The notes: generated by a model from the letters alone, not told the origin. A stretch of DNA of 34,226 bases from Nanobdellota archaeon (GCA_002688395.1 NZCU01000014.1:1-34226), one strand, 5' to 3'; positions 630 to 33,873 are shown, counted from the stretch's first letter. A program made the numbers and translations.

Positions 630-755
630 ATGAAAAAGTACCTTCTTTTGATAGAGGATGAGAAATTATGGGTGAAATTTAAATCTGCTATTGATAAAGA
701 CCTTAATACCGAAATTATAGATCTTATTAAGAAGAAGGTAAGAGGGAGTAAATGA
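630..755 (+). CDS. Small ribbon-helix-helix (CopG/Arc-like) protein, 41 aa; below the ORF-track size cutoff
   Basis: Manual translation gives MKKYLLLIEDEKLWVKFKSAIDKDLNTEIIDLIKKKVRGSK, which has a beta-strand / helix / helix RHH-like pattern. Its TGA overlaps the next gene's ATG (ATGA at 752-755). Confidence 0.45.
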   Translation: MKKYLLLIEDEKLWVKFKSAIDKDLNTEIIDLIKKKVRGSK

Positions 756-6308: not shown

Positions 6309-7111
6309 TGGAGCTTTTTAAGAAGAGTTTTAGTTTGTTAATTAATAATAAACAAAAAGTTTTTACTAGTGTAGGTGTTGATTTTATATTTTATATTTTA
6401 GTTTTGTTATCTGGATTTTATTTTTTTAATAAATTTTCTGAAAAGTTTGAAATAATAAATAATAATATTAGTAGTGTTGTTTTGGCTGATGAAGAACTTT
6501 CACAAGGAGCTTTACTTAAATTAAATGCTGTCTCTACTGCTTTGACAGATATGTTGTTAATTGTTATTGGTTATTTTATTTTAGTTTTAATTTTATGGGG
6601 GATCTTTAATGGTGCTGTTTGGTTAATATGTAAAAATATTATTAAAAATAAGAAACCTTTTGATGGTTTTGATATAACTTTTTTATCAAGATATTATATA
6701 TTAAGTTTATTTTGGTTTTTGATAACTGGAATTCTTTTCTTTTCTTTTTATAATTATAATTCTTATGTTTTATCTTTGGGAAATATTGGAATTTTAATTG
6801 TTAATTTACCAATTTTATTAATATTATATTTTGGAACTATTTCTTTTTCTTTGTTTTTTGTAAATGGAAAAACTATTAAATCTTTTACGAATTGTTTTAA
6901 ATTAGGATTAAGTAAAGTTTCTTTTTTAATTGCTTTTGTTTTATTTATTTTAATATTTTATTTTTCTGAATTTATTTTATTATCTTTAGGGAAGTTAATA
7001 AATTCTAATGTTTTTTCTATTTTAGGTATTATTGCTTTCTTGTTAATTATGGTTTGGTTTAGAGTTTATTTATTATTACTTGTAGAAAAATATGCGGGAG
7101 ACAGGATTTGA
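6308..7111 (+). CDS. Polytopic integral membrane protein (about 6-7 TM), unknown function
   Basis: I prefer the ATG at 6308, which overlaps the upstream TAA (TAATG), over the track start at 6284. The sequence is very hydrophobic and Phe/Leu/Ile-rich. The last 18 nt, including the TGA, lie inside the convergent tRNA-Leu. Confidence 0.6.
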   Translation: MELFKKSFSLLINNKQKVFTSVGVDFIFYILVLLSGFYFFNKFSEKFEIINNNISSVVLADEELSQGALLKLNAVSTALTDMLLIVIGYFILVLILWGIFNGAVWLICKNIIKNKKPFDGFDITFLSRYYILSLFWFLITGILFFSFYNYNSYVLSLGNIGILIVNLPILLILYFGTISFSLFFVNGKTIKSFTNCFKLGLSKVSFLIAFVLFILIFYFSEFILLSLGKLINSNVFSILGIIAFLLIMVWFRVYLLLLVEKYAGDRI

Positions 7112-7218
7112 ACCTGCGTAGGCACTAAGCCATCAGGTGTCTTACAGAAACGTCCTAAGCTTAGTCTTCTAAAATACAATTTTAGAATCTGACCCGTTTT
7201 CCGCTCCGGCACTCCCGC
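7093..7218 (-). tRNA. tRNA-Leu(UAG), class II (long variable arm), with two introns
   Basis: Minus strand: acceptor GCGGGAG/CTCCCGC, T-arm GCAGG-TTCAAAT-CCTGT, 15-nt variable region with a GGC/GCC stem, discriminator A. Removing 7161-7188 (28 nt, position 30/31) and 7139-7153 (15 nt, canonical 37/38) gives a perfect anticodon stem UCAGG/CCUGA and loop CUUAGGA. The canonical intron folds as helix / 3-nt bulge GGA / 4-bp CUUA:UAAG / 3-nt bulge ACA. Confidence 0.8.
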
Positions 7219-7284
7219 TTAATAGAAGAAGAGATGAAGGTAATTTAAAAAAGTTTTTATATCATATTCAATTACATAAACAAT

Positions 7285-7548
7285 ATGGGTGCTTTAACAG
7301 AGATATTGGAGTTGTTAATAGGTTTTATTGTTCTTCCTAGGATTGTTCTTTTTGGTTGGATACTATTTGCTGCTTATTTTAATTTAAGCAGTCTTCTAAT
7401 AACTCTTGTAGCCCAAATTTTGATTCTTTTTGTCCTTGCACGTCTTTTCTTTAATTTTAGAAGACTTATTGCTTATGGATTGATAATTGCAGGATTGGGG
7501 AGTGTAGTAGATTTTTTAATTAGTCTCCTTGGATTTAGTTTAGTTTAA
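7285..7548 (+). CDS. Small membrane protein (about 3 TM), unknown function
   Basis: 87-aa hydrophobic ORF. A TATA-like TTTTTATAT lies about 30 nt upstream, in a promoter region shared divergently with tRNA-Leu. Confidence 0.45.
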   Translation: MGALTEILELLIGFIVLPRIVLFGWILFAAYFNLSSLLITLVAQILILFVLARLFFNFRRLIAYGLIIAGLGSVVDFLISLLGFSLV

Positions 7549-7582
7549 TTATTTTCTTTTAGAGTATTAAAGTATATACTAG

Positions 7583-7640
7583 AAAATATATATTACATTC
7601 AAATGACATACTTGCCAAGGGTGCGTGAGGCTTATAAACA
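7583..7640 (+). promoter_or_regulatory. Conserved upstream cassette, copy A (box1 GACATACTTGCCA, box2 CGTGAGG, TATA CTTATAAA)
   Basis: Near-identical to 30579-30636, which lies upstream of TnpB. The core is shared with 16621-16664, 19529-19574, 13827-13875 (minus strand) and 33013-33037. Confidence 0.7.
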
Positions 7641-7664
7641 AAAACCCTTTATAATTATTGTGTT

Positions 7665-9041
7665 ATGGACCAAATTATGGAGATATCAAGGGGAGATTTT
7701 TGGAAATATGAGAAGCCTCTATTTATTTTAAAAAAGAGGATTTGGGGAGGTGGTTACTTTTACTTTCCTAGAAAACTTGCTAGAGAATTACGTTTGGATC
7801 GAGATTGTGTGCTGTTATTTAGGATAGCTTCTGCTAAATCTTTATTTTGCTTGAGTAAAATTTCTGAAGTAAGAAAAGATTATGTTTTAAAGATAAGTTC
7901 TGATATTCTTAAAAACTTGAGAATTAAAACATCTAGTTTGCTTAAATTAGAGTTCTTACAAATTAAGAAAAGAGGTGATAAACCAAAACTTCACATTATG
8001 AAGAATCATATTGATGTTATTAGGTATATTCCAGGAGGTAATGAATTTGTTTGTTTTAAAAGACCAGGGAATTGGGTTACTGTTTATTATCTAAAAGGAA
8101 GGAGTTCTTCTAATTTGACAATAAGAAGATTTGTTAAATTAAATCAGATATTTCTTTGGAATATTGGTTTTTATTTGGCAGAAGGTGAAAAAGCTACGAA
8201 TTATAGATTTGGATCATCTAATGCTGAAATAGATTTAATTAAATTGTTTAGAGATTGTGGAGAGAAATGTTTTGGTTTAAGTAGAAATGATTGGTATGCA
8301 GAACTGAGATTAAAGTATGGTAATGAAGTAGCTGTTAAACACTGGATTGATAATCTTGGTCTAAATAAAGATAAAGTTAATGTTAGAATTGTTAAAAATA
8401 AACCTCCTGAAACTGAATTTGGAAATTTATCTTTGGTTTTTTATAATAGGATTTTAGGGGAAATTAACAAAAATATTATTTATGATTTAAAATTTATAAG
8501 GAATTTGAGTAGAGTGGAGAAATTGTACATTCTTCGTGGACTTGAAGCTGGAGATGGTACCGTACTAAAAAATGGTTGCTTAGAAATGGGTATAACCTGT
8601 CAGAAAAAAGAAATGGAGATTGTGAAGTATTTACTTTCTTCTGTTTGTTCTAAAGATCCATTTATAAGAGAATATTGGACTTGTGATAAGGTTTGGTTTG
8701 TTTTCCATAGAGGTATTGAAATGGCTAAAGAATACATCTTAGATGGACATTTTTTGGAGCATACTAACAGACGGAAAAGACTATTAAATTTGTATAAATA
8801 TTATAAATTTAAGGAACTTTTTTGTTTATGTTTGTTATTGAATAGAAAAAATACTGTCTGGGATTTAACTAAAAATATGGACCTTACATATCCTGCAATA
8901 AATGTAAGATTGAAAAATTTAACAAAAGATGGTTTTATAATTAACAAGAAAGATAAACTCTTTAAAAATAATAGGTCCTATGATATTAGAAGGTTTTATT
9001 TAACTAATAAAGGAAAAGAGTATCTTAATCATTTTCTTTAA
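7665..9041 (+). CDS. LAGLIDADG homing-endonuclease-like protein with N-terminal AbrB/SpoVT-like segment and C-terminal wHTH
   Basis: Two LAGLIDADG-type motifs are present (NIGFYLAEGEK; YILRGLEAGDGTV). The N-terminal YFYFPRKLARELRLDRDCVLLF is AbrB-like. The C-terminal NVRLKNLTKDGFIINKK is wHTH-like. Confidence 0.75.
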   Translation: MDQIMEISRGDFWKYEKPLFILKKRIWGGGYFYFPRKLARELRLDRDCVLLFRIASAKSLFCLSKISEVRKDYVLKISSDILKNLRIKTSSLLKLEFLQIKKRGDKPKLHIMKNHIDVIRYIPGGNEFVCFKRPGNWVTVYYLKGRSSSNLTIRRFVKLNQIFLWNIGFYLAEGEKATNYRFGSSNAEIDLIKLFRDCGEKCFGLSRNDWYAELRLKYGNEVAVKHWIDNLGLNKDKVNVRIVKNKPPETEFGNLSLVFYNRILGEINKNIIYDLKFIRNLSRVEKLYILRGLEAGDGTVLKNGCLEMGITCQKKEMEIVKYLLSSVCSKDPFIREYWTCDKVWFVFHRGIEMAKEYILDGHFLEHTNRRKRLLNLYKYYKFKELFCLCLLLNRKNTVWDLTKNMDLTYPAINVRLKNLTKDGFIINKKDKLFKNNRSYDIRRFYLTNKGKEYLNHFL

Positions 9042-12141: not shown

Positions 12142-12699
12142 ATGGTTAAAAAGAAAGAAGATATTATTGAACTTAAGAAGAAGATAGTTGGAGTGCTAGA
12201 AAAAGAGAGGGTTGTTGGAGATGTAAGTAATGAAAGTACTTTAATTTATGATAAAAGTAGATTTGGAGAGAGAGTTGGAGAGAAATTTCAGTATTCTTTA
12301 GTTGAAGGTTTGTTTTTATTAGATACTAAAAGAATGAATATTAAAGATGGAAGGGGTAAAAAGGTTAAATTTGATGATTTTTTAAAAAAAGCTAGGAGAT
12401 TTGATAAGAATTTTTGGGTTAAATACTGTGTTTTTAAAGATATGAGAAGTAGGGGTTATGTTGTTAAAACTGCTTTGAAGTTTGGAGCTGAATTTAGGGT
12501 TTATGGAAGGGGTATTAAACCTGGAGATGATCATGCTAAGTGGATTGTTTATCCTGTTCATGAATCTAATACAACTACTTGGTCTGAATTTGCTGCTAAA
12601 AATAGAGTAGCTCATAGTACTAGGAAAAGATTGCTCGTTGGTGTGGTTGATGATGAAGCAGAAGTATCTTATTGGGAGATATCTTGGATAAGGCCCTGA
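12142..12699 (+). CDS. endA: tRNA-splicing endonuclease (short, alpha-type subunit)
   Basis: The C-terminal catalytic domain is RGYVVKTALKFGAEFRVY...HAKWIVYPV. ATG at 12142, with TTG at 12136 as an alternative. Confidence 0.85.
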   Translation: MVKKKEDIIELKKKIVGVLEKERVVGDVSNESTLIYDKSRFGERVGEKFQYSLVEGLFLLDTKRMNIKDGRGKKVKFDDFLKKARRFDKNFWVKYCVFKDMRSRGYVVKTALKFGAEFRVYGRGIKPGDDHAKWIVYPVHESNTTTWSEFAAKNRVAHSTRKRLLVGVVDDEAEVSYWEISWIRP

Positions 12700-13802
12700 T
12701 TGACACTCCAGATAATTTTATTTTTGTATCCATTTTTTTGGATTATTCCTTCTTTTTCTAATTTGTTTAGATGTCTTATGGCTCCTCCATGTGTGAAAAG
12801 TAAACTATTAGCTATCTCTAACGTTTTTGAAGGTTTGTCCTTTAATATCTTTAAAATTTCTTTCTTTAATAAAATAGGATTTCTTGTTCTTTCTTTTCTA
12901 TTCCTAATTTTTATTTTGTACTCCATACTTAATTTTTTATGAGGACATTCAATAGGAATTGTATTGTGGAAATTTTCAAGACTTCTAGATGAAAGTGGTA
13001 GTGAGACTTTATCCTTTTTGTATCCATATTTGAAAATAACAATCTTATTAGTTTTAATATCTAAGTTTTCTAATAATTCTTTAACTTGTTTAATTAAATT
13101 TAAATTATGAATTGTTAGGTTTGGTTCTTTAGAAAAAGATCCGTCATCATCGAACAAAGCTCCAGTAAATGACGATTTACATTCTTTTGAGGATGAAAAT
13201 ATTAATTTTGGGATTCTATTTGGGTGCGTAATCTGAAAATCAAATAAATGTTGAATTATGTCTGAAATTGCTTTTGGAAATTCAATAATTGATGTGGTTT
13301 TCGTTTTTATTTCTCTAGTTCTAAAGTTGCCGAAAAGAGATAATTTTTCTATGAATTTTTCCCTTAGAGTTTTATCAGAATTCGCATAATATGGAGGATG
13401 ACTTTTTGCTTGACAGCCGTCTGCAATCATATGACCAATTATGGAATATAGCTTTGGAGTTTCTTTTAATGGCAGTTTTAGTTTTTTAATTTCCAAACCT
13501 GCTCTTACGCTAATTGCTAAAATATTCTTTTCTAGTTTGAACTTATTTTTGGAATCTATAATTTTTTTTAATAATTTTAATGGAATCGATTGAGAGTATT
13601 TAATCTTGTATTTTATACTAAATCCTCTTTCATAGTTTAGCAACGTTCTCAAATTAATATTTAGATATTTGGCAGTTTTTCTTTTGCTACCAAATTTTTC
13701 ATATAATTGATTAAATAATTTCTTTCTAAAGTTATCTTTTATCTTAACATATATTGTTTCTGGAAAATCTAAAATATCCCACTCCTTCAGTTTTCTTGAC
13801 AT
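12669..13802 (-). CDS. LAGLIDADG homing-endonuclease-like protein flanked by N- and C-terminal HTH/wHTH domains
   Basis: LAGLIDADG-type motifs are YSIIGHMIADGCQ and FTGALFDDDGSF. N-terminal HTH is KRKTAKYLNINLRTLLNYERG; C-terminal wHTH is GGAIRHLNKLEKEGIIQKNG. The 3' end overlaps the endA 3' end by 31 nt. Confidence 0.75.
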   Translation of the reverse strand: MSRKLKEWDILDFPETIYVKIKDNFRKKLFNQLYEKFGSKRKTAKYLNINLRTLLNYERGFSIKYKIKYSQSIPLKLLKKIIDSKNKFKLEKNILAISVRAGLEIKKLKLPLKETPKLYSIIGHMIADGCQAKSHPPYYANSDKTLREKFIEKLSLFGNFRTREIKTKTTSIIEFPKAISDIIQHLFDFQITHPNRIPKLIFSSSKECKSSFTGALFDDDGSFSKEPNLTIHNLNLIKQVKELLENLDIKTNKIVIFKYGYKKDKVSLPLSSRSLENFHNTIPIECPHKKLSMEYKIKIRNRKERTRNPILLKKEILKILKDKPSKTLEIANSLLFTHGGAIRHLNKLEKEGIIQKNGYKNKIIWSVNQGLIQDISQ

Positions 13803-13952: not shown

Positions 13953-14873
13953 ATGGTGGATGTTGATCGTAGAGATAAAATATTAGAGTTTGTAAGAAAA
14001 GAAGGAGCTGTTTTACCTATTAAGATTTCTAAAGAATTTAATATAGATACTATGTTTTCAGGCGCGATGTTATCAGAGCTTGTTAATAGTGGTAAAATTA
14101 AAGTTACTGAGCATTTAAAGGTTGGAGGAACTCCTGTTTATTATGTTGAAGGTATGGAAGCTAAATTAGAGGATTATACTAAATTTCTTAATGAGAAGGA
14201 TATTAGGACTATTGCTTTTTTGAAAGATAAAGGGATAGTTGAAGATAAAGGGTTAAGTCCTTTGCAGAGAGTTTCTTATAGGATTGTTAAAGATTTTGCT
14301 AAGAGTATTGTGTTAAAAAGAGATGATGGGAGTAAAGAGGTTTTTTGGAGATATTTTTTAGTTGATGAGGAAGCTGCTAAAGAAAAAATATTAGATTTGA
14401 TTAATAATAAAAAGGAAGATGTTAAGGTTAAAGTTGAGAAACAGGCATCTTTAGAAGAACCTGCTTTAGAAGAGGAAGTTCACGAAGAAAAAGAGCTTCC
14501 TGAGGAAAAACCTTTAGAGGAGCCTTTACAAAGAGAGGTCCCTGAGAGAATTGAGGTTAAGAAAAAACCTATTGGAGATGTTGTTAAAGAATTTTTTAGA
14601 GTTAATGGTATTACTGTTTGGGAAGAGAAGGTTATAAGGAAAGGAAAAGATGTTAATTACCTTGTAAGTTTTGATTCTAGAGTTGGGAAAGTTAGGTATT
14701 TTGCTAAATATAGAGATAAGAAAAGAATAAGTGAAGGAGATGTGAGTTTGGCTTATAATGAAGCTGGTAAATTGCCTTTATTGTTTCTAAGTAAAGGAGA
14801 GTTAACTAAACCTGCTAAGAGAATTATAGAAGAAGAATTTAAAGGTGTGATATTTAAGAGATTAAGTAGATGA
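13953..14873 (+). CDS. Hypothetical protein: N-terminal wHTH-like domain, acidic linker, basic C-terminal domain
   Basis: The N-terminal KILEFVRKEGAVLPIKISKEFNIDTMFSGAMLSELVNSGKIKV is wHTH-like. An E/P/K-rich linker follows. I could not assign a family. Confidence 0.45.
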   Translation: MVDVDRRDKILEFVRKEGAVLPIKISKEFNIDTMFSGAMLSELVNSGKIKVTEHLKVGGTPVYYVEGMEAKLEDYTKFLNEKDIRTIAFLKDKGIVEDKGLSPLQRVSYRIVKDFAKSIVLKRDDGSKEVFWRYFLVDEEAAKEKILDLINNKKEDVKVKVEKQASLEEPALEEEVHEEKELPEEKPLEEPLQREVPERIEVKKKPIGDVVKEFFRVNGITVWEEKVIRKGKDVNYLVSFDSRVGKVRYFAKYRDKKRISEGDVSLAYNEAGKLPLLFLSKGELTKPAKRIIEEEFKGVIFKRLSR

Positions 14874-15913
14874 TAAAAATAATTGATTGTGGAAGCCAAT
14901 TAACTCAGAATATTGCTAGGAGAGTTAGAGAGTTGGGTGTTTTTACAGAGATTGTTCCTTTTAATACATCTTATGAAAATGTTGTTGAGCAAGATACAGA
15001 TGGACTTATAATTTCTGGAGGTCAATTTAGTGTACATGATGATACTGCACCTATGTATACAAAAAAATTCTTAGAAGCTAGTATTCCCATACTTGGAATT
15101 TGTTATGGGCTTCAATCAATTTCTCATTTATTAGGTGGGAAAGTGATATCTACAAAAAATAGAGAATATGGAGAGACAAAGATTAAGATATTAAAGAAAA
15201 ATCTTCTATTTAAAGATATTAATTCTGAAGAATTTACTGTATGGATGAGTCATGGAGATATATTAGAAGAAGTTCCTTCTGGTTTTGAGGTTCTTGCAAA
15301 ATCATGGAATAATCATATAGCCTCAATACAAAGAGATAATATTTATGCTGTACAGTTTCATCCTGAAGTTGACCACACTGAACATGGAAGAAAGATACTT
15401 GATAATTTTTTAGAAATTTGTAAGTCAAAAAGGACTTGGGATCCTGAAAAAGAGTATAATTTTATTCTTAATAAAACTAGAGAAAAAATAGAAGGGAAAA
15501 TTGGTGTTGGTGGTATAAGTGGAGGTGTTGATTCAACAACAGTATCTGTTCTACTTGATAGAATAGCTGGAGAAAATTATCATCCAATTTTTATTGATAA
15601 TGGGTTATTAAGATTGAATGAGATAAATGAAGTAAAAAATAATCTTAGTTCTCTCGGCCTTAGAGTGCATTATGTTGATGCTAGTGAGAGATTTCTTTTA
15701 AAATTAAAGGGAGTTATTGATTCGGACGAAAAGAGGAAGATTATTGGTCATGAATTTATTAGAGTATTTGAGGAGGAAGCTAGGAAAATTCCAGGAGCTT
15801 CTTATTTAGTTCAAGGGACGCTTTATCCTGATGTTATTGAAAGTGTACCAATTTATAGTGCTTCTTCTATGATAAAAAGACATCATAATGTTGAGGATTG
15901 CCCAAAGATATGA
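14870..15913 (+). CDS. guaA: GMP synthase (glutamine-hydrolysing), part 1: GATase domain plus N-terminal part of the ATP pyrophosphatase domain
   Basis: GATase catalytic region PILGICYGLQ and HPEV; PP-loop SGGVDSTT. It ends ...HHNVEDCPKI where the family has HHNVGGLP, so the frame is lost at about 15893. Confidence 0.85.
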   Translation: MIKIIDCGSQLTQNIARRVRELGVFTEIVPFNTSYENVVEQDTDGLIISGGQFSVHDDTAPMYTKKFLEASIPILGICYGLQSISHLLGGKVISTKNREYGETKIKILKKNLLFKDINSEEFTVWMSHGDILEEVPSGFEVLAKSWNNHIASIQRDNIYAVQFHPEVDHTEHGRKILDNFLEICKSKRTWDPEKEYNFILNKTREKIEGKIGVGGISGGVDSTTVSVLLDRIAGENYHPIFIDNGLLRLNEINEVKNNLSSLGLRVHYVDASERFLLKLKGVIDSDEKRKIIGHEFIRVFEEEARKIPGASYLVQGTLYPDVIESVPIYSASSMIKRHHNVEDCPKI

Positions 15914-16389
15914 ATTTAGAAGTTGTTGAACCATTTAAGCATATGTTTAAGGATGAGGTGAGAAAGATAGCTGAAAATAAACTTAATATGTCTAGAGCTG
16001 TTGTTTGGAGACATCCCTTTCCTGGACCGGGATTGGCTATACGTATTAAGGGAGAAGTAGATAAAGAAAAATTAGAGATTGTGAGACAAGCTGATGCTAT
16101 TTTTCTTGATGAACTTAAAAGAAGAGGGTTATATTATGATATTAGCCAAGCATTTGTGGGATTAAATGATGTTCAATCAGTTGGAGTTATGGGAGATGAA
16201 GGTACTTATGAAGGAGAGATTAGATTGAGAGCAGTTGTTACAAAGGATTTTATGACTTCTGATATATATCATTTTAAATGGGAGGATTTACAAGCAATTT
16301 CTAATAGAATTGTAAATGAAGTTAGGGGTGTTAATCGTGTTTTTTATGATACAACTCAAAAACCTCCGGGAACGATAGAATGGGAATAG
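15898..16389 (+). CDS. guaA: GMP synthase, part 2: C-terminal/dimerisation region, in the -1 frame relative to part 1
   Basis: The frame reads (G)LPKDMNLEVVEPF...RHPFPGPGLAIRI...PPGTIEWE, the canonical GuaA C-terminus. It ends with tandem stops TAG TAA. Confidence 0.85.
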   Translation: MPKDMNLEVVEPFKHMFKDEVRKIAENKLNMSRAVVWRHPFPGPGLAIRIKGEVDKEKLEIVRQADAIFLDELKRRGLYYDISQAFVGLNDVQSVGVMGDEGTYEGEIRLRAVVTKDFMTSDIYHFKWEDLQAISNRIVNEVRGVNRVFYDTTQKPPGTIEWE

Positions 16390-16684: not shown

Positions 16685-17380
16685 ATGTATTGTTTGACTG
16701 ATTCTCAAAAAGTAGATTTGGCTTATTTAATTGGGGCTGTTATTGGTGATGGATCTTATATGAACACTAAGAGTGGAAAAAGACGAAATATTAGATTTTC
16801 TTTCGGTTCTTCTGATAGGGAGTTTGTCGTTATTATAAAGGACATTATTAGAGACATTTTTTCCCTTGAATTAAACATATGTGTTGAAAGATTATCTCTA
16901 AAAAATAATGCATGGAGAGACCATTATAAAATAAGGAGTAGAATATTGCACAGACATCTTAAAAAATATCTTCCTGATAAGAATAAAATACCTAGTTTTG
17001 TCTATAATTCAAACCACTTTATTAAAAGTAGTTTTATTTCTGGATTTTTTGATGCTGAAGGAGGAATTTGTGTTAGTACTATAAAATCCAGAAATGTTTT
17101 AGATAGGAGATTGTATTGTCATAATTTCAATATTGATTTATTGAATGAAATTAAAGGATACTTATCTGAATTAGATATTGATTGTTTTATACAGAATAGT
17201 AAGAGAGCTTATGCTTTAAATATTTGGGGTTATAAAAATTTGGTTAATTTTAAAAATAAAATTGACTTTAGAATTTATAGAAAGAGATTTAAACTATTAG
17301 GTGCTATAAATAGTTATAAATTTGTTCACAAAAAATACAGACATTTGAAAGTTGATGTTCAAAACTTAGGAGGGATTTAA
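16685..17380 (+). CDS. LAGLIDADG homing endonuclease (compact two-motif form)
   Basis: Classic motifs are present: LAYLIGAVIGDGSY and FISGFFDAEGGI. Confidence 0.85.
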   Translation: MYCLTDSQKVDLAYLIGAVIGDGSYMNTKSGKRRNIRFSFGSSDREFVVIIKDIIRDIFSLELNICVERLSLKNNAWRDHYKIRSRILHRHLKKYLPDKNKIPSFVYNSNHFIKSSFISGFFDAEGGICVSTIKSRNVLDRRLYCHNFNIDLLNEIKGYLSELDIDCFIQNSKRAYALNIWGYKNLVNFKNKIDFRIYRKRFKLLGAINSYKFVHKKYRHLKVDVQNLGGI

Positions 17381-19592: not shown

Positions 19593-20538
19593 ATGAAAAT
19601 TGATTTAATGAAGTATATTCCAAATAAAATCATTCCAAAACAAGGAAACTTGAAAGAATTCTCTATAAGTGAGCATAATAGTAATTTGTTGTTGTTTTAT
19701 AAAGGTTGTAGAAAGAAAATATTATTACCTAGGTTTGTTAATTTAAGTGAGGAGGATTTTGTTGCAATTGGTCTTTATCTAGCAGAAGGTCAAAAGTATG
19801 TTAATCTTGATAAGAAGTATCATCACTCTGGTGAGATAGATTTTTCTAATAGTGAGTTAATTTCTTTAGAACTGTTTTGTAAATTTATAAAAAAATTAAA
19901 TATATCTTCTAAGGAGTTTAGATGGGAAATTGTTTTAAATGTAAAAAGGAAATTTATAGATAAATCTTTGTTATTGAATTATTGGGTAGAAAATCTAAAC
20001 TTAGATTTTGAGAAAAGACGTCCTAAGAGTGTACGTTATAGCGGATCTTTATTTACAAATCCAAAAACTGTTAGTTAGTGATTATGGATGTATTCATTTG
20101 AAATATAGTTCTGTAATCTTTCGTAATTTTTTCTTGAATTTTGTATTTGAAATTTTTAATGATTTTTTGAAAATTAAGCATAAAAATATACTAGGATTAA
20201 TTCTGAAAGGTTATTTTGCAGGAGATGGAAATGTAACTTTTAATTTAAAGCCTAGAAGAAAGGCTGTTTATTTTTGCTCTAATGATATTAAATTATTTTC
20301 TATGCTAAAAGAAGCCCTTAAGACAATAGGAGTAAGCTCTATTAAAGAAACTTATCCTGAATATACTAGAACTCACACTAAGAGTTTAGTTTTTTATAAT
20401 TTTAAGGATTTTCAGTTGTTGGATGATTATGCTATTGCAGATACTGTTCCTTACAAAAGGAAGAAGTTTGAAAAACTTTTAAAGAGTTATAAATTATTGC
20501 CTCGAGCCGGATTTGAACCGGCGATCACTAGCTCATGA
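19593..20538 (+). pseudogene. LAGLIDADG homing-endonuclease-like gene disrupted by a 4-bp tandem duplication; paralog of 7665-9041
   Basis: Motifs are AIGLYLAEGQKY and LILKGYFAGDGNV. GTTAGTTAG at 20070-20078 contains GTTA twice; deleting one copy joins the two track ORFs into ...NPKTVSDYGCIHLKY.... The 3' end reads 41 nt into tRNA-Met. Confidence 0.75.
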
Positions 20539-20571
20539 AACTAGGGTTCTGCCAGACTAAACTATCGAGGC
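20498..20571 (-). tRNA. tRNA with CAU anticodon (elongator Met, or Ile2 if C34 is modified)
   Basis: The minus strand gives a full cloverleaf: acceptor GCCTCGA/TCGAGGC, D-stem GTTT/GAAC, anticodon stem CTAGT/GCTAG, loop TTCATGA, T-arm GCCGG-TTCAAAT-CCGGC, discriminator A. It lacks initiator features (no A1:U72, no GGG/CCC in the anticodon stem). Confidence 0.9.
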
Positions 20572-20646
20572 TTTAGTGAAGAGTGCTTTATTTGATTTTT
20601 AAGGGTTTTGGTTAAGTTTAAATAGGTTATTTTTTTAAGAAAAACT

Positions 20647-21189
20647 ATGGAAAATAAGAAATTAGGATTAATATTATTAGGAATTGGAGTGTTATTTTTA
20701 GTTAGTTTGATTATATTTAAATTACAAATTAATAGTTTAGTTCATATTGTCATGGATCAAAGTGGGGGTAATTGTTTTATAGATGGAGAAACTTGCATTC
20801 ATGAACAAAGTCAATTCCCAATCTATGTAGGGATAATTGTGGTTGTTGTTGCATTTTCATTAGGAGGATATTTATTATTCTTTGATAAATCTCAAAAATA
20901 CGTTAAGGAGATGCAAGAAAAATTAGTAGATAGATTGGAAGAGACTAAAAAAGAGAAAGATAGTGATGAAAATTTTGAGTTTTTATTAAAGGGGTTAGAT
21001 GAAGCTGAGAAGAGGGTTGTTAAAGCTGTTAAAGAACAAGATGGAATAACCCAAGCTACATTAAGGATTAGGGTAGATATGTCTAAAGCTAAGTTAAGTG
21101 CTGTTTTAAGTGAATTGGATAAAAAAAATCTAATTAAAAAAGTTTCTCATAAAAAAACTAATAAAATTTTCTTAAAAACTGCTCTATGA
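20647..21189 (+). CDS. Membrane-tethered wHTH (MarR-like) regulator with extracytoplasmic CX6C loop
   Basis: Two TM helices flank the loop GGNCFIDGETCIHEQ. The cytoplasmic C-terminus is a wHTH: EKRVVKAVKEQDGITQATLRIRVDMSKAKLSAVLSELDKKNLIKK. Confidence 0.65.
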   Translation: MENKKLGLILLGIGVLFLVSLIIFKLQINSLVHIVMDQSGGNCFIDGETCIHEQSQFPIYVGIIVVVVAFSLGGYLLFFDKSQKYVKEMQEKLVDRLEETKKEKDSDENFEFLLKGLDEAEKRVVKAVKEQDGITQATLRIRVDMSKAKLSAVLSELDKKNLIKKVSHKKTNKIFLKTAL

Positions 21190-21292
21190 ACGTTCTAGAG
21201 TTAAAATTTTGGTGTTATGAACGATAAAGAATGTATTGTTTTTGGGGTTAAATATAAGGATGGATGTTTCTTTTGAAAGCTTGTGAAATTAA

Positions 21293-21952
21293 ATGGATAA
21301 TGATGAAACTCAAGAAAAACAAATTTTGAGTAAATTATCTACAATACTGGTGGTTGTTGCTTTTGTTTTGATGGTGTTTAACCAATTTCAATTAATGGGG
21401 TTAAATTCTGAATTAGGATCTACCCCAACTGGTTTATCCATTGTATCTACTTCTGTTATACCCACAGGAACACCTAAAATTTATGGTAAGGAATTGGGAA
21501 TTAGTTATGATAATGTAAACCCTAATGATCCACAATCAGCTGATGCTACTATAAAAGCTATGAGTAGTTTAGATAGGACTTTAACTTTGACTGGAGATGA
21601 TTTAAGTAGATATATTAAAATTGTTAGTGAGATAAGCTGTGAGTATTGTTGTGGAGCTAAATCTATTATTTTTGACGATGGTAGGCCTGCTTGTGGATGT
21701 GCACATAGTTATGCGATGAGAGGATTAGCTAAATATTTAATTTTAAACCACGAGAATGAATTTAGTGATGATGAAATCTTAACTGAGTTAGCCAAATGGA
21801 AGACTTTGTATTTTCCAGGACAGATGCAAGCTAAAGCGGATGTTATGAAATCAAAAGGTGTTGAATTTAGTTATATTAACTTAGGGAGTAATAAGTACAG
21901 AAATATCGAGAAAGGGGCTACATCTAGTAGTGGAATGGTTGGGGGGTGTTAA
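21293..21952 (+). CDS. Membrane-anchored Cys-rich protein (PCYCGC-like motifs), C-terminal MVGGC
   Basis: N-terminal TM anchor, motifs CEYCCG and PACGCAHS, ends SSSGMVGGC. Confidence 0.55.
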   Translation: MDNDETQEKQILSKLSTILVVVAFVLMVFNQFQLMGLNSELGSTPTGLSIVSTSVIPTGTPKIYGKELGISYDNVNPNDPQSADATIKAMSSLDRTLTLTGDDLSRYIKIVSEISCEYCCGAKSIIFDDGRPACGCAHSYAMRGLAKYLILNHENEFSDDEILTELAKWKTLYFPGQMQAKADVMKSKGVEFSYINLGSNKYRNIEKGATSSSGMVGGC

Positions 21953-21953
21953 A

Positions 21954-22151
21954 ATGGATAAAGAAATAATTTTGGTTTTGATGTTGGTTGGATTGGTAGT
22001 TTTAGGAGGAGTGCAGGCGGTTCAGATAAATGATCTAAAAGATAATCTTAATGATGGAAATTTAATTACAGGAAATGCTGTTAATACCGAAACTACTCAA
22101 TCTACATCGGTTCGTACAGTAACACAGCCTTCAATGGTTGGAGGTTGTTAG
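21954..22151 (+). CDS. Small membrane-anchored protein, C-terminal MVGGC
   Basis: MDKEIILVLMLVGLVVLGGVQAV... ends QPSMVGGC. It starts 1 nt after the previous stop. TAG stop. Confidence 0.5.
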   Translation: MDKEIILVLMLVGLVVLGGVQAVQINDLKDNLNDGNLITGNAVNTETTQSTSVRTVTQPSMVGGC

Positions 22152-22152
22152 T

Positions 22153-22881
22153 ATGAGAAAATTATTTTTTCTTTTACTTTTTAGTGTTGTTTTTTTAAGT
22201 GGTTGTTCTGTAAATAAAAATGTTATAAATAATTTAGATGTTGAGAATTTTGCAAAATTGATTGAGAAAGATGATGTTTTTTTATTGGATGTGCGCATGC
22301 CTGAAGAAACACATATAATGGGGACAGATGATACTATTGCATTTGATAAATTAATGGAAAATGTTGATAGATTACCCAAAGATAAAAATCAACCTATTGC
22401 AGTTTATTGTAGAAGCGGTGTTAGAAGCGCTAAGGCTTCAGAAACTTTGAAAAAAATGGGATATTCTAATATTTATAATTTACTTGGAGGGAAAAACGCT
22501 TGGGACTTAGAAGAAAATAAAATTACTATTTTTAAACCTGCAAGTTGTGGATGTTGTGTTGGTTGGACTGCAGAAGTTAAAAATAAAAAATTTAATGTTG
22601 AAACAAAAATTACTCAAAATATGGAACCTATAAAACAAAAATATGGAATTCCTAGAAACATGTGGAGTTGTCATACTGCTTCTGTTGGAGATTATTTTAT
22701 TGAAGGTCATGTACCTATAGAAGCCGTTAATAAATTGTTAAAAGAGAAGCCAGATATAAAAGGAATAGCTTTACCTAATATGCCTGCAGGATCCCCAGGA
22801 ATGCCTGGTGTTAAATCTGGACCATTTAGAGTATATTCTATTTTAGATGATGGAAGTAGTGAAATTTTTATGGAGGTTTAA
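22153..22881 (+). CDS. Predicted lipoprotein: rhodanese domain fused to a DUF411/CopG-like metal-binding domain
   Basis: Signal peptide with lipobox MRKLFFLLLFSVVFLSGC. Rhodanese active-site loop YCRSGVRS. DUF411-like signature SCGCCVGW...WSCHTAS...GHVP...PGMPG. Confidence 0.7.
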   Translation: MRKLFFLLLFSVVFLSGCSVNKNVINNLDVENFAKLIEKDDVFLLDVRMPEETHIMGTDDTIAFDKLMENVDRLPKDKNQPIAVYCRSGVRSAKASETLKKMGYSNIYNLLGGKNAWDLEENKITIFKPASCGCCVGWTAEVKNKKFNVETKITQNMEPIKQKYGIPRNMWSCHTASVGDYFIEGHVPIEAVNKLLKEKPDIKGIALPNMPAGSPGMPGVKSGPFRVYSILDDGSSEIFMEV

Positions 22882-22882
22882 A

Positions 22883-23326
22883 ATGATAAGGAAAAAAACT
22901 TGGTTTGGTATTAATTTAATTGTTTTATTGGGGTTTTTGATAGCATTTGTTACAAGCTCAACTGGAACATCTTTTGAACATATGGATATGGATGAAAAAA
23001 GAGATACTTTTATTTCCCTTAAAGAAGATATTCAACAAGATTTAATGCCCAAACATGGATATAGATGTTGCTTAGTCAAACCTTGCACTTATTGTATTGA
23101 AAAAACTCCAGGACATGGCGAAGGTGCTGTATGTGATTGTTTGAGTGATGTTGTTAATGGAGTCCATCCATGTGGAGAATGTATTGGTGAAATTCTAGAA
23201 GGTCATGGTAATCCCTACCTTAAAGAATATTTTGCAGAAGCTATAGCTGAAAAGACTGGCCAAAAGAAAGCTTTAAAAAAGATAATCTCTAAAAAATATG
23301 ATGTAGCTGAGGATGATCAAAAATGA
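22883..23326 (+). CDS. Membrane-anchored Cys/His-rich protein, unknown family
   Basis: N-terminal TM, then RCCLVKPCTYCIEKTPGHGEGAVCDCLSDVVNGVHPCGECIGEILEGHGNP (9 Cys in about 50 aa). Confidence 0.55.
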   Translation: MIRKKTWFGINLIVLLGFLIAFVTSSTGTSFEHMDMDEKRDTFISLKEDIQQDLMPKHGYRCCLVKPCTYCIEKTPGHGEGAVCDCLSDVVNGVHPCGECIGEILEGHGNPYLKEYFAEAIAEKTGQKKALKKIISKKYDVAEDDQK

Positions 23327-23916
23327 AAATTAAAGAAATTATTTTGGTTGCTGTAATTGTTGGAATATTGTCTAGTTTAATAACTGTTACATCTTTAAAC
23401 TATTTAGAGAAAGATAATTTAATTAAAGATTTTTATCTTACTGAGACTAGTGTTCATGTAAGTCCACATCATATTAGGAAAGCTATGGATAAAGGAGATA
23501 GTAATTTTATTTTAGTAGATTTAAGGAGTGATGAAGAGTATGAGAGAGAACATATTGTTGGGGCTATAAATATTCCTGCTTATAGAGATCCCTATACTTC
23601 TGCTTATGGGGATGTTGAAAGAATTGTTGGAGAATTTTCTAAATTACCTAAAGATAAAGAAATAATTGTTTATTGTTATAGCACTCCTTGTATGACTGGA
23701 AGGAAAGTTGGAGGAATGCTTGCAGAAAATGGAATTTTTGTTAAACATTTAGGTGTCGGGTGGAATGAATGGAGATATTTTTGGACTATGTGGAATCATG
23801 AACATGAATGGAATATAACTAATGTTGAAGATTATGTTGTTAAAGGGAAAAATCCAGGAGTTCCAAAATTACAAGATTATGGTGGATGTAGTATTGAAGG
23901 GAAATTTGGCTGTTAA
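23323..23916 (+). CDS. Membrane-anchored rhodanese-domain protein with C-terminal Cys
   Basis: N-terminal TM. Rhodanese fold signature FILVDLRSDEEYEREHIVGAINIP ... IIVYCYSTPCMTGRK ... GWNEW. Ends DYGGCSIEGKFGC. Confidence 0.65.
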   Translation: MKIKEIILVAVIVGILSSLITVTSLNYLEKDNLIKDFYLTETSVHVSPHHIRKAMDKGDSNFILVDLRSDEEYEREHIVGAINIPAYRDPYTSAYGDVERIVGEFSKLPKDKEIIVYCYSTPCMTGRKVGGMLAENGIFVKHLGVGWNEWRYFWTMWNHEHEWNITNVEDYVVKGKNPGVPKLQDYGGCSIEGKFGC

Positions 23917-23992
23917 AATTAAAATTTGACTATATATAGAAAACTTTTTATATACTAATCTTTTGATTAGAAACAATAGGAGGGTTAAAACA

Positions 23993-24715
23993 ATGGAAGA
24001 AAGTAATGAAGGAAACATAACTTTAAAAAAATCTAGTTTGTGGAAAGCTGGAACATTTGTATTTGGATTATTATTTGTGATATCTTTATTCACAGGAGGA
24101 TTTGGTACAGGTGATGGTGGTGGTGTTACTGGTAATGGTGTTGCACAACCTTCTCCTAGTGTACCAAATATTCCTACTGGTGTAGGAACAGTAAGGGCCG
24201 AAGATATTGTTGATGATGATCCTTTTTTAGGAGATGAAAACGCACCTTTAACAATAGTTGAATTTAGTGATTTTCAATGTCCTTTTTGTAGCAGATTTAA
24301 AGATCAAACTTTAAGTCAGTTGAAATCTGAGTATATCGATACTGGAAAAGTTAAATTTGTTTATAGAGATTTCCCTTTGAGTAGTATTCATCCAATGGCA
24401 CAAAAAGCTGCTGAAGCTACTGAATGTGCAGATGAACAAGGAAAATTCTGGGAATATCATGATTTGGTCTTTGATAGACAAAGTAGCTTGAGTATTGGAA
24501 ACTTAAAAAGTTGGGCAGGAGAACTTGGATTGAATAGTGCAGAATTTGATGAATGTTTAGATTCTGGAGAACAAGCTGATGAAGTTGCTAATGATTTAAA
24601 AGCTGCAACTGCTGCAGGTGGAAGGGGTACTCCGTTTTTCATAGTTGGTAATCAACCTTTAAGTGGAGCACAACCATTTAGCGCATTCCAACAAGCGATT
24701 GAATCTCAACTTTAA
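23993..24715 (+). CDS. Membrane-anchored DsbA-family thiol:disulfide oxidoreductase
   Basis: Thioredoxin-fold active site FSDFQCPFCSRF and a late GTPFFIVG motif. GGAGG SD lies 10 nt upstream of the ATG at 23993. Confidence 0.8.
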   Translation: MEESNEGNITLKKSSLWKAGTFVFGLLFVISLFTGGFGTGDGGGVTGNGVAQPSPSVPNIPTGVGTVRAEDIVDDDPFLGDENAPLTIVEFSDFQCPFCSRFKDQTLSQLKSEYIDTGKVKFVYRDFPLSSIHPMAQKAAEATECADEQGKFWEYHDLVFDRQSSLSIGNLKSWAGELGLNSAEFDECLDSGEQADEVANDLKAATAAGGRGTPFFIVGNQPLSGAQPFSAFQQAIESQL

Positions 24716-24749
24716 ATTTTTTTATTTTTTTTATTTTAAAGGATTTAAC

Positions 24750-25508
24750 ATGGCTTTTATACATAATATTGACCCTGCATTTTTAAGAATTGGACATTTT
24801 GAATTAAGATATTATGGGCTTGTTTGGGTTGCTGGATTTTTATTGGCTTATTATATTCTAAACAAATATAGAAAAAACGGTAAGCTGGATATTTCTGTTG
24901 AAAAATTAGAAAGTTTTATGTTGTATTTAATTTTAGGGGTGTTAATTGGAGCTAGATTATTTCATGTGTTATTTTCTGATCCTAGTTACTATTTTAGTAA
25001 TCCTTCTAGAATACTTGCTTTTTGGGAAGGGGGAGTTGCTTTTCATGGAGGTTTAGTTGGAGCTGCTCTTGTTGTTTATTATTTTGTTAAGAAAAATAAT
25101 TTAAGTTGGAAACAATTAGGAGATGCTATTGCAGTTCCTACTGTTTTAGCTTTAGCATTAGGAAGGATTGCTAACTTTATTAATGGAGAATTATGGGGCA
25201 CTATTACTAATGTTTCTTGGTGTGTTAACTTTCCTGGAGTTAGCGGATGTAGACATCCTAGTCAGTTATATGAATCTATAGCTAATTTTTTTATATTTGG
25301 AGTCTTATTTTTTTGGAATAAGAAAGAGAATAAATCTGGATTTATCTTTTGGATGTTTATATTATTAATGGGGATTACTAGATTTTTAATTAGTTTTTTA
25401 AGAGAAGATGATAAGTGGTTGGGGTTGAGTGATGGACAGTATTTTAGTTTGATAATGATAATTATTGGAGGCTATGTTTTGTTTAAACATTATTTTAAGT
25501 ATGAGTAA
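24750..25508 (+). CDS. lgt: Prolipoprotein diacylglyceryl transferase (Lgt)-like membrane protein
   Basis: YYGLVWVAGFLLAY, AFWEGGVAFHGG and the Lgt signature GRIANFINGELWG...HPSQLYE. I prefer the ATG at 24750 over the track start. Confidence 0.8.
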   Translation: MAFIHNIDPAFLRIGHFELRYYGLVWVAGFLLAYYILNKYRKNGKLDISVEKLESFMLYLILGVLIGARLFHVLFSDPSYYFSNPSRILAFWEGGVAFHGGLVGAALVVYYFVKKNNLSWKQLGDAIAVPTVLALALGRIANFINGELWGTITNVSWCVNFPGVSGCRHPSQLYESIANFFIFGVLFFWNKKENKSGFIFWMFILLMGITRFLISFLREDDKWLGLSDGQYFSLIMIIIGGYVLFKHYFKYE

Positions 25509-33060: not shown

Positions 33061-33873
33061 ATGAACAGAAATAAATATCAGAGATTATATGAAGAGGAAA
33101 AGAATTTGATTAAGAATTTAACTTTGAAAGGAAATAGTTTGAGACAGATTTCTGAGATAACGGATCTTGGAATAACTACTATATACTATCAAGTGAGAAA
33201 ATTTAAACCCAAACAGAAAAAGGATTTTGTTTGTAATTTAAGTGATTTTCAAATAGGAGAATTAATTGGATCTTTTGCAGGGGATGGAAACTTTTACTAT
33301 TCCTCTCATGGTAGGAGTGGTCACTATAGGATTAGATACTATCTTTCGTATAAAGATGACATGGATTATTCTAAGTATTTATCCCATCTATTAGAAATGA
33401 TGAACTTACGCACCAATACTTTTTTTAAGAAGTATAAAGGAAAATTAAGTGTAATTGAATTGGTTGTTAGATCTAAAGATTTTTATAAATTTATAAGGAA
33501 GTATCTCATTTGGGAAGGCAAAAAAACTTATTCTGTAAGATTGAAATCTTACATTAATGGATATAGCGATGATTTCTTGAGAGGCTTTGTTAGAGGTCTT
33601 ATGGATACGGATGGATTTGTGGAAATATCTGGCGTTGCTTTTGGTGTTGTTTCTAGAGATCTTGTTTTAAATTTTGAGGCTATTCTAAGCAAGTTTAATA
33701 TTGGATCTAAATTATCAATCAAACCTGGGAAAGGAAATTGTAAGGACTGTTACCTATGTCGTATTCCTAGAAGATATTTGGAATTGTATAATGAAATTTT
33801 TGGATTTAGTAACTTAAGAAAAATTAACTCTTTAATGAAAATATTAAGTAAAACTGGGACTGCGCGGATTTGA
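33061..33873 (+). CDS. LAGLIDADG homing endonuclease with N-terminal HTH
   Basis: HTH is LRQISEITDLGITTIYYQVRK. LAGLIDADG-type motifs are IGELIGSFAGDGNF and FLRGFVRGLMDTDGFV. The last 19 nt lie inside tRNA-Pro. Confidence 0.8.
   Translation: MNRNKYQRLYEEEKNLIKNLTLKGNSLRQISEITDLGITTIYYQVRKFKPKQKKDFVCNLSDFQIGELIGSFAGDGNFYYSSHGRSGHYRIRYYLSYKDDMDYSKYLSHLLEMMNLRTNTFFKKYKGKLSVIELVVRSKDFYKFIRKYLIWEGKKTYSVRLKSYINGYSDDFLRGFVRGLMDTDGFVEISGVAFGVVSRDLVLNFEAILSKFNIGSKLSIKPGKGNCKDCYLCRIPRRYLELYNEIFGFSNLRKINSLMKILSKTGTARI

Follow-up and report, generated by a model that had tools for sequence, protein, structure and literature searches.

A 34,226-nucleotide (nt) stretch of DNA from a Nanobdellota archaeon (NZCU01000014.1:1–34226; hereafter the window) carries, between positions 20647 and 25508, eight consecutive + strand genes, which encode a membrane-tethered regulator (g1), the Cys-rich proteins G2 and g5, a small anchored protein (g3), a lipoprotein in which a rhodanese is fused to a CopG-like DUF411 domain (g4), a second rhodanese (g6), a DsbA-like oxidoreductase (g7) and a prolipoprotein diacylglyceryl transferase (Lgt; g8) (Table 1). 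The region is a compact variant, bearing rhodaneses and DsbA and lacking the usual membrane components, of a gene island conserved mainly in DPANN archaea. The window has a G+C content of about 29% and, judging by its gene content, derives from a DPANN archaeon, since it encodes TFIIB and a tRNA-intron endonuclease, and named homologues of its proteins come from Woesearchaeota, Pacearchaeota, Aenigmarchaeota, Nanoarchaeota and Diapherotrites.

All eight open reading frames (ORFs) are present at these positions, as described in an earlier interpretation made from the nucleotide sequence alone (the sequence-only reading), and its view that every product is anchored in the envelope agrees with hydropathy analysis: G2, g3, g5, g6 and g7 each have a single N-terminal hydrophobic segment, g4 has a signal peptide terminating in the lipobox LSGC, and g8 is polytopic. 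The close packing that it noted for the five genes spanning 21293–23916 is also seen, with 1-nt gaps at G2/g3 (21952/21954), g3/g4 (22151/22153) and g4/g5 (22881/22883) and a 4-nt overlap at g5/g6 (23323–23326). The ORFs of g7 and g8 open at a TTG (23963) and a GTG (24663), respectively; ATG codons at 23993 and 24750 are the likelier starts, with which the two genes do not overlap. Domain calls, made with Pfam and NCBIfam profile hidden Markov models against curated cut-offs, place the winged helix-turn-helix (wHTH), rhodanese, DUF411/CopG, DsbA and Lgt assignments above threshold. Two of the original counts need correction: g3 is indeed a small anchored protein, but of 65 residues from its ATG rather than 66, and g5 has the Cys motifs ascribed to it, but eight cysteines rather than nine.

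The Cys-rich domains are predicted to lie outside the cell, as the sequence-only reading supposed, and the wHTH inside, because Lys + Arg counts flanking the first transmembrane (TM) helix favour an N-in/C-out orientation at family level. This bias is seen in 116 of 120 G2 members, in 100 of 120 g5 members (the opposite in 8), and by 53 to 4 and 49 to 4 in the g3 family and at TM1 of the g1 family, respectively.

Table 1. Coordinates of genes and candidate regulatory elements in the window.
Feature	Position	Strand	Description
Putative g1 promoter	20617..20624	+	TATA-like box TTTAAATA, 23 nt upstream of g1 start
g1	20647..21189	+	Membrane-tethered transcription factor; DUF7343 winged helix 119–176
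Operator box 1	21185..21194	+	TATGAACGTT; overlaps g1 stop codon
Operator box 2	21216..21225	+	TATGAACGAT; 31 nt downstream of box 1
Putative promoter of G2–g6 transcript	21236..21257	+	Degenerate GTTTC-like half-site TTGTTTTTGGGG, then TATA box TTAAATATAA
G2	21293..21952	+	N-terminal TM anchor and about 165-residue extracytoplasmic, mostly helical domain; orphan family
g3	21954..22151	+	TM anchor, low-complexity linker and C-terminal MVGGC
g4	22153..22881	+	Lipoprotein (lipobox C18): rhodanese fused to CopG-like DUF411
g5	22883..23326	+	N-terminal TM anchor and 8-Cys, His-rich domain; orphan family
g6	23323..23916	+	TM-anchored rhodanese; Pfam Rhodanese (PF00581) 55.8 bits
g7	23993..24715	+	TM-anchored DsbA-like thiol:disulfide oxidoreductase, C106-P-F-C109
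g8	24750..25508	+	Bacterial-type Lgt; PF01790 220 bits, 3e-65

The conserved core and its neighbourhoods

Neighbourhoods were compared using ORFs within 6 kb of G2 in 87 related loci (83 after duplicate removal; 88 sequences when the window is added), with the longest ORF called and ATG favoured as the start. Neighbour families were built by clustering with reciprocal 60% coverage, and their representatives were confirmed by Pfam; a single-linkage 'DUF411' family (139 members, 58 loci) was discarded, as its length spread and a check for CxCC exposed it as a merger of unrelated proteins. The families of the cluster co-occur in other genomes. The two closest relatives of the window, L092 and L093 (60% and 58% identity in g4), have the order wHTH, G2, g3, rhodanese-DUF411 and g5; genes for an ArsR-type regulator and an ArsP-type permease come next, with a cupredoxin also in L092, and neither locus has g6, g7 or g8. 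As both keep the first five genes without the last three, the conserved unit inside the window is 20647–23326, and the second rhodanese, DsbA and Lgt are additions that vary between loci, so the eight-gene, self-contained system proposed in the sequence-only reading contracts to five genes. The window has the features by which the island is recognised, namely a G2 with SCEYCCG...ACGCAHS and a terminal MVGGC, a small MVGGC protein downstream, a two-TM DUF7343 protein upstream and an operator between.

G2 carries the motifs C116-E-Y-C119-C120-G and C134-G-C136-A-H138-S and ends in M215-V-G-G-C219. Conservation was scored in alignments of 120 sequences each for G2 and g5; in that of G2 the invariant columns include C116, E117, C119, C120, G121, C134, G135, C136, H138 and S139, as well as M142-R-G144, K168, K170, F174-P175, M215, V216, G217 and C219. 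There are 1830 homologues at E ≤ 1e-3, and the 120 best listed are all without a precomputed Pfam domain. Of the GTDB species genomes scanned, 399 encode a relative, almost all of them labelled DPANN, and a profile search of 1.84 billion representatives returned 311 clusters only. The AlphaFold2 model (predicted local distance difference test score, pLDDT, 89.8) is helical, and comparison with the PDB by Foldseek gave a best E of 2.3, a PDB profile search being empty. A Pfam scan of the 120 members at E ≤ 1 yielded no consistent family; assignment to PCYCGC (PF13798) was not supported, there being no hmmscan match for the window protein or among these members at that threshold and an hhalign probability of 10% against PF13798-type proteins from related loci.

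The second orphan family, g5, has the motif order CC-x4-C-x2-C ... C-x-C ... HPC-x2-C ... GHG, and its alignment conserves eight Cys and several His (YRCCLEKPCTYCIEKTPGHGEGAxCDC...HPCGECIGEILEGHGNPY). The corresponding searches gave 568 homologues at E ≤ 1e-3 (precomputed Pfam domain in 0 of the 120 best listed), a model with pLDDT 84.3, a best Foldseek match to the PDB of E = 4.4, an empty PDB profile search and no consistent family in a Pfam scan of 120 members at E ≤ 1. PCYCGC, which the sequence-only reading had suggested checking, was not matched by hmmscan in the window protein or in any of these members at E ≤ 1 and, in hhalign against the same PF13798-type proteins, reached a probability of 45% over only 14 columns. 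A DUF411 gene lies directly upstream of g5 in every g5 locus examined.

The most distinctive trait of the cluster, which the sequence-only reading did not mention, is the identical MVGGC C-terminus of G2 and g3. Among the 87 loci, 85 have a G2 protein with the ending (M/Q)VGGC and 73 encode at least one small protein with such a tail; in two loci where G2 ends in QVGGC, so does g3. In 57 of 80 loci the gene directly downstream of G2 is g3, mostly after a gap of 1 nt, and in members of its family a TM helix is followed by a juxtamembrane QAFQIxxLK, also present in G2, and then by a low-complexity linker and the tail, with Met/His motifs in many linkers (ETYEQMMARMHPDQ, GGETYEQMMARMHPDQ, WTENEKMNYEMHGTIPAR) and an N-terminal, cytoplasmic CC in a subset. 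From its sequence g3 looks like a tether with a thiol tail.

Distant G2 members retain SCE(Y/F)CC and ACGCAHS, with a VGGC or GEC ending in most of the full-length ones displayed. A relative from Methanoperedens has both Cys motifs in slightly altered form and runs past the domain without a VGGC or GEC ending. In Desulfobacterales, a relative of the G2 domain (L088, 7001–8416; P0320, P0392) is fused to an FKBP peptidyl-prolyl isomerase and ends in NMVGGC; this fusion hints at a role for the domain in protein folding or maturation, and no metal genes were seen in its gene context. The gene contexts of these distant relatives were otherwise uninformative.

A more adventurous interpretation, which we think rather unlikely, is that G2 and g3 form a new class of membrane-tethered 'swinging-arm' carriers, in which the MVGGC tail would ferry Cu(I) or persulfide between donors and acceptors at the surface. 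The persulfide, Cu-bound or free, would be made by the rhodaneses, and the outward loop of the two-TM wHTH would sense this same chemistry; the globular domain of G2 would be a new metallo-domain that loads and unloads its own arm and that of g3.

In g4, the rhodanese (PF00581, 53.8 bits) has a loop of the CxxGxR type (Y-C86-R-S-G-V-R-S) that aligns with the active-site loops of 6mxv and PspE. The DUF411 domain (PF04214, 88.1 bits, cut-off 27; residues about 124–240) is of CopG type, with an intact CxCC (C132-G-C-C135) and Met motif (MPAGSPGM) together with SCHT and GHVP. It aligns over its full length with the CopG structure 6WIS (E = 1.8e-22), CGCC, SCHT, GHVP and MPxGSPGM being kept. CopG binds a Cu4 cluster through its CxCC and methionines, acts in copper resistance under anaerobic conditions and is frequently found linked to copA, cus or multicopper oxidase genes (PMC7558416). 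Among the best 120 g4 matches, 12 clusters show the same fusion of rhodanese and DUF411 as g4, and so do L092 and L093.

The common gene order in the related loci is wHTH, G2, g3, DUF411, F3, F5 or F7, and two copies of F4. F3 is a multi-TM protein with an invariant AHCPLC (48/83 loci), F5 a soluble protein ending in CCKE (31/83), F7 a membrane protein with CxxC and a CCKKW end (19/83) and F4 a small membrane protein with a Cys pair (CxxxC) in its TM helix (18/83). Cys pairs within a TM helix are also found in F12 (CPxC), another small membrane protein that travels with G2, and in a 161-residue 'CC' membrane protein (25/83). Examples of these orphan families lie at L076 12160–12687, L046 14476–14907, L061 11919–12419 and L019 3466–3912; none of the six has a Pfam family, and a search of the whole window found no F3, F4, F5, F7 or F12.

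Copper-type proteins are prominent among the remaining neighbours. A cluster of 650–880-residue proteins occurs in 26 of the 83 loci; 23 of its 27 members are P1B ATPases, and the 23 carry CPC(A/S)LG and MxxSS. The CPC/MxxSS combination is the signature of Cu+/Ag+ P1B-1 pumps. Cupredoxin_1 occurs in 12 of the 83 loci, HMA chaperones in 8 and an HMA-DsbD_2-cupredoxin fusion in 6; single-domain DUF411 is found in 27, a Grx/DUF411-membrane fusion in 9, DUF5676 in 19, a YHS-like protein in 11 and the g5 family in 6, with Met-rich proteins in 13 loci and weakly thioredoxin-like F8 proteins in 15. In L091 the order is G2, g3, DUF411, g5 and CopA, and in L090 it is DsbA, DUF411, g5, multicopper oxidase, COX2-like, DoxD and TRASH. 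PF13798 genes stand at the DUF411 position or adjoin DUF411 in several related loci.

The breadth of these neighbourhoods could be taken to indicate that the module serves thiophilic metals or metalloids in general (Hg, Ag, Cd, As or Te) through a Cys-pair relay as in MerP, MerT and MerC. The Cys-pair membrane proteins F3, F4, F12 and the 161-residue family fit this interpretation, as do the neighbouring ArsR, PadR, ArsP permease, TPMT/TehB-like methyltransferase and DUF302 genes. MerA, MerB and ArsC, however, were not seen among the recurrent neighbour families, and the CopG-type DUF411, multicopper oxidase, cupredoxins and CPC/MxxSS ATPases are typical of copper, so that we regard a general thiophilic role as quite improbable.

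The membrane-tethered regulator and its candidate operators

The g1 protein has two TM helices (6–24 and 61–79, by hydropathy) separated by a loop with C43-X6-C50 followed by HEQS, and its C-terminal winged helix matches DUF7343 (PF24034) with 38 bits (1.5e-9; cut-off 27.6), MarR, TrmB and HTH_24 being sub-threshold on the same stretch. A two-TM wHTH of this family is found in 64 of the 83 loci. The loop Cys pair is kept in the family with varied spacing (CX5C in 21, CX12C in 14, CX6C in 8 and CX13C in 6) and is often followed by a His, whilst 7 of 68 distinct members have no loop Cys; in three of the relatives displayed, Met/His-rich loops (MMQGMSEMMG, HTVMGDHIM and HTMMMGDHMM) replace the pair. 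By its position, the TATA-like box in front of g1 is a putative separate promoter of this gene.

Between g1 and G2 lie two TATGAACG boxes, which are the only two exact matches to TATGAACGWT in the 34-kb window. The position of box 1 is kept in L011, L020, L030, L064, L016, L079, L051 and L031 and in the independent closest relative L092, which also has the 31-nt spacing of the two boxes. Downstream of them, the GTTTC/TATA element aligns with CAGTTTC-N4-5-GG(T)TAAnTATA of the class-A loci and with CTGTTTCTTAGGTTAAATATAA of L092, its TATA box being 36 nt upstream of the G2 ATG. The two-box layout of the window matches loci whose g1 loop is likewise CX5-7C-x-HEQ. Generic repeat finding in the intergenic region returned chiefly AT-rich noise save for one repeat, D6, which corresponds to the two operator boxes; a scan of the AT-rich archaeal window for sigma-70 promoters and intrinsic terminators was uninformative.

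A second type of operator, the perfect palindrome GAAACTAGTTTC, was found by k-mer counting in g1–G2 intergenic regions (for example at L015 5608–5619, L005 6486–6497 and, in an independent locus where it lies 39 nt upstream of G2, L091 4676–4687). Composition would predict about 1.3 copies of its form GAAACNNGTTTC in 1.12 Mb of related loci, where 49 are seen. Of these sites, 35 lie 15–96 nt upstream of G2, with a TATA box and a GTGTTTC half-site downstream of them; some of the others precede genes for F3, F8, cupredoxin or a divergent wHTH, suggestive of a small regulon. The palindrome does not occur in the 34-kb window, which belongs to the class with TATGAACG boxes.

The type of operator covaries with the class of g1 loop. 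Loci with class A loops have the palindrome in 0 of 17 cases and two or more GAAC boxes in 9 of 17, whereas those with class B and C loops have the palindrome in 19 of 23 and no GAAC boxes (Fisher p = 7e-8; loci were here, as in all our association statistics, counted as they stand, irrespective of shared ancestry). This covariation fits g1 as the cognate regulator of the G2 operon, from which we infer binding. With a wHTH gene directly upstream of G2 in 37 of 78 loci and an operator between them, the module does appear to have its own regulator, as the sequence-only reading had proposed.

Accessory genes and other features of the window

The g6 rhodanese has a two-Cys variant of the active-site loop (C118-YSTP-C123-MTGRK) and a C-terminal C189-x7-C197, ending in GKFGC; its closest solved relative is BH2092 (3o3w), with a similar CxxxxC loop. 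Anchored rhodaneses of this type occur within 6 kb of G2 in only 3 of the 88 sequences, all three ending in FGC, and any rhodanese at all in about 10.

These numbers bear on the persulfide (sulfane sulfur) relay by which the sequence-only reading had organised the cluster, and which we now consider improbable. In such a relay the rhodaneses would load the C-terminal Cys of G2 and g3, acting as SoxY-like arms, and sulfur would pass to the Cys clusters of the CopG-like domain and g5, for instance to build or detoxify Cu–S species. It would account for the two rhodaneses of the window, one with a canonical CRSGVR loop, for the rhodanese-DUF411 fusion in 12 protein clusters, for stand-alone rhodaneses in four further loci (directly upstream of the DUF411 gene in L009) and for the terminal Cys shared by the g6-type proteins; the Gly-Gly-Cys end of G2 and g3 may also be likened to the SoxY arm. 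As an organising idea it is nevertheless weak, because rhodanese domains occur in so few of the sequences in which G2 and g3 are near-universal, and it is copper genes that predominate in the neighbourhoods. Partners of the Sox, Dsr or Tus type are not seen, G2 is predicted to be helical, unlike the SoxY β-sandwich, and a sulfur relay leaves the tail Met and the Met/His motifs unexplained. Alongside an envelope copper module, it would be an accessory at most.

The g7 protein matches Thioredoxin_4 (PF13462; 115 bits, 4.7e-33) and DSBA (PF01323; 78 bits, 8.2e-22), has the cis-Pro loop G-T-P-F-F and finds its nearest solved structures in the actinobacterial DsbA 4pwp (4e-26) and BdbD, ahead of the ScsC structure 4gxz (7e-9). 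Since a g6-type rhodanese is followed after 1 nt by a DsbA gene in L055 too, g6 and g7 form a small recurrent sub-module.

The window has a DsbA-like gene, as do 11 of the 83 loci within 6 kb of G2, which raises the question of an extracytoplasmic thiol–disulfide system for oxidative folding or repair, which we judge to be unlikely. G2 would in that case be a novel disulfide-generating or -shuttling protein, its CxxC/CxC centre served by the mobile C-terminal Cys, a logic that may be likened to that of Erv2 with its CGC tail; g3 would be an adaptor, DsbA and the rhodaneses client-facing oxidoreductases, and copper genes would adjoin since copper stress damages thiols. The CxxC and CGC motifs of G2, the fusion of its bacterial relative to a prolyl isomerase, which is a folding catalyst, the recurrence of the rhodanese–DsbA pair, the F8 proteins and the DsbD-type membrane proteins nearby are all consistent with this. 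However, most loci, including the two closest relatives, have no DsbA, and G2 shows no flavin- or quinone-binding signature and no significant Erv, DsbB or VKOR fold match, the sole match to Erv1 having E = 5.3 and a TM-score of 0.14. Moreover, the invariant Met of the tail and the Met/His residues of the linkers and sensor loops are of a metal-ligand kind, with no role in disulfide exchange, and Cu pumps and cuproproteins are the strongest recurrent neighbours.

The final gene, g8, matches the Lgt equivalog TIGR00544 with 184.5 bits (cut-off 118.9). It is probably a neighbour rather than a part of the module, although it could lipidate g4. Bacterial-type Lgt is also encoded in four related DPANN loci (L021, L034, L048 and L087), making 5 of the 88 sequences. 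Archaeal lipoproteins are the subject of a 2025 paper that describes bacterial Lgt as being without identified archaeal homologues (PMC12462473); our observations raise the possibility that DPANN archaea may use a bacterial-type Lgt to lipidate lipobox proteins such as g4.

Elsewhere in the window, free-standing homing-endonuclease-like genes are unusually dense, with four LAGLIDADG-type ORFs in 34 kb (19593–20538, 16685–17380, 12669–13802 on the - strand and 33061–33873). The first of these consists of two overlapping frames, probably reflecting a frameshift, and runs into a tRNA-Met (20498–20571, - strand), whilst that at 12669–13802 also bears an ArsR-type HTH. GMP synthase (14870–16389, +) is represented by a 347-residue GATase ORF overlapping a 163-residue GMP_synt_C ORF, perhaps a guaA that has been split or frameshifted; a LAGLIDADG ORF lies shortly downstream. 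Large same-strand ORFs at 752–9041 (+; 651, 1204, 275 and 458 residues) have no Pfam match at E ≤ 1e-3 and may encode DPANN-specific surface or giant proteins. The GC skew is strongly positive (+0.2 to +0.5) over the first 26 kb, a stretch of + strand genes, and about zero or negative beyond ~26 kb, among - strand genes; the change could be due to a coding-strand G bias or a replication-related switch.

Interpretation and comparison with known systems

We favour the interpretation that the island handles copper or soft metals in the envelope, on the outer face of the cytoplasmic membrane, under a membrane-tethered sensor-regulator of its own, at a probability of roughly 55%. It is based on the CopG-type domain, on the copper-rich neighbourhoods and on the Met/His motifs, of a Cu(I)-binding kind, in g3 linkers and g1 loops.

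In the mechanism that we propose, the outward Cys-pair/His loop of g1, Met/His-rich in some orthologues, would sense the metal and alter how the wHTH, on the cytoplasmic side, binds the two boxes and the GTTTC half-site beside the TATA box, thereby switching transcription of G2–g6. G2 would hold metal through its CxxC...CxC knuckle together with C120 and H138; its flexible MVGGC tail, and the identical tail of g3, would capture Cu(I) near the membrane and hand it on, g3 presumably being a tether-only version of the G2 arm. The lipoprotein g4 and its constant partner g5 would buffer or oxidise Cu(I). The fused rhodanese, g6 and the DsbA-like g7 may serve as optional helpers in thiol chemistry that maintain the redox state of ligand cysteines, repair copper-induced disulfides or supply sulfane sulfur, whilst Lgt would merely lie alongside and may lipidate g4.

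Several points weigh against this assignment. The functions suggested for G2, g3 and g5 derive from guilt by association and ligand-like residues, and their Cys-rich extracytoplasmic domains could simply be disulfide-bonded. The 34-kb window contains no CopA, HMA or cupredoxin gene, and it is without F3, F4, F5 and F7, which accompany G2 in most loci. The ArsR, PadR, ArsP permease, TPMT/TehB-like methyltransferase and DUF302 neighbours suggest a wider metal or metalloid specificity, and the distant bacterial relative of G2 that is fused to FKBP lies in a context without metal genes. Finally, the p-value for operator–regulator covariation, from which binding by g1 is deduced, ignores phylogeny.

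DPANN archaea are ultrasmall, mostly uncultured and host-attached, and the biochemistry of their surface is largely obscure. The module occurs in about 400 species-level genomes and contains two strongly conserved families without a Pfam family or a solved structural relative, the best matches of which, in several phyla, are 55–70% identical to the proteins of the window. If the copper interpretation is true, the module would be the main envelope system for copper defence or trafficking in DPANN organisms, would offer a tractable sensor–operator pair for archaeal transmembrane signal transduction and would contain a new type of metal- or sulfur-carrying C-terminal arm.

With respect to described systems, g4, g6, g7 and g8 are ordinary members of known families, whereas G2, g3, g5, the MVGGC tail, the two-TM DUF7343 regulator and the operators are undescribed in Pfam, the PDB and the literature searched (with the terms PCYCGC, DUF7343, MVGGC, DPANN with DsbA and DPANN with copper), where the system as a whole is likewise undescribed.

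The g5 protein resembles the PCYCGC (PF13798) lipoproteins in being Cys/His-rich, extracytoplasmic and anchored, with C-Y-C ... H-x-C-x2-C ... I-x2-Y. A further likeness, of arrangement, is to SoxY, a β-sandwich sulfur carrier with a C-terminal GGCGG swinging arm and SoxZ as partner: G2 and g3 also carry a thiol on a flexible Gly-Gly-Cys C-terminus, with rhodanese genes nearby. In contrast to SoxY, both proteins terminate in the Cys itself, with an invariant Met ahead of it; G2 is predicted to be helical and is tethered to the membrane, g3 lacks a globular domain, and no Sox genes, SoxZ and SoxAX included, were seen in the window or the loci.

As in membrane-tethered one-component factors of the ToxR/CadC type, the DNA-binding domain of g1 is held at the membrane and an outward segment carries a Cys pair; CadC uses a periplasmic disulfide. 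Unlike these factors, g1 has two TM helices, a short-loop sensor and a C-terminal DUF7343/MarR-like wHTH and, being archaeal, must act on a TATA/TFB promoter.

The Scs system, which combines the DsbA-like ScsC with the DsbD-like ScsB, offers a parallel in its membrane-associated DsbA-like CxxC protein in a copper context. The g7 protein matches the ScsC structures 4gxz, 6nen, 6mhh and 4xvw, and some related loci encode DsbD-type proteins. The g7 protein is, however, nearer to actinobacterial DsbA/MdbA and BdbD; DsbA is optional in the related loci, and Pfam scanning of the window ORFs detected no ScsB/DsbD-like gene.

Further counterparts are the CopG-containing bacterial clusters (cop, pco, cus and cutFOG), the CopG chain of which aligns over its whole length with the C-terminal domain of g4; related loci that place DUF411 beside a multicopper oxidase or CopA recall the cutF-cutO-cutG arrangement (PMC7558416 for the cut genes). 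Unlike bacterial CopG, the archaeal g4 has a lipid anchor and a fused rhodanese, and its gene is always followed by that of the orphan 8-Cys g5; the wHTH–G2–g3 triad that precedes it has no bacterial counterpart. The logic of the module is like that of the bacterial CopG-containing copper clusters and the Scs systems.

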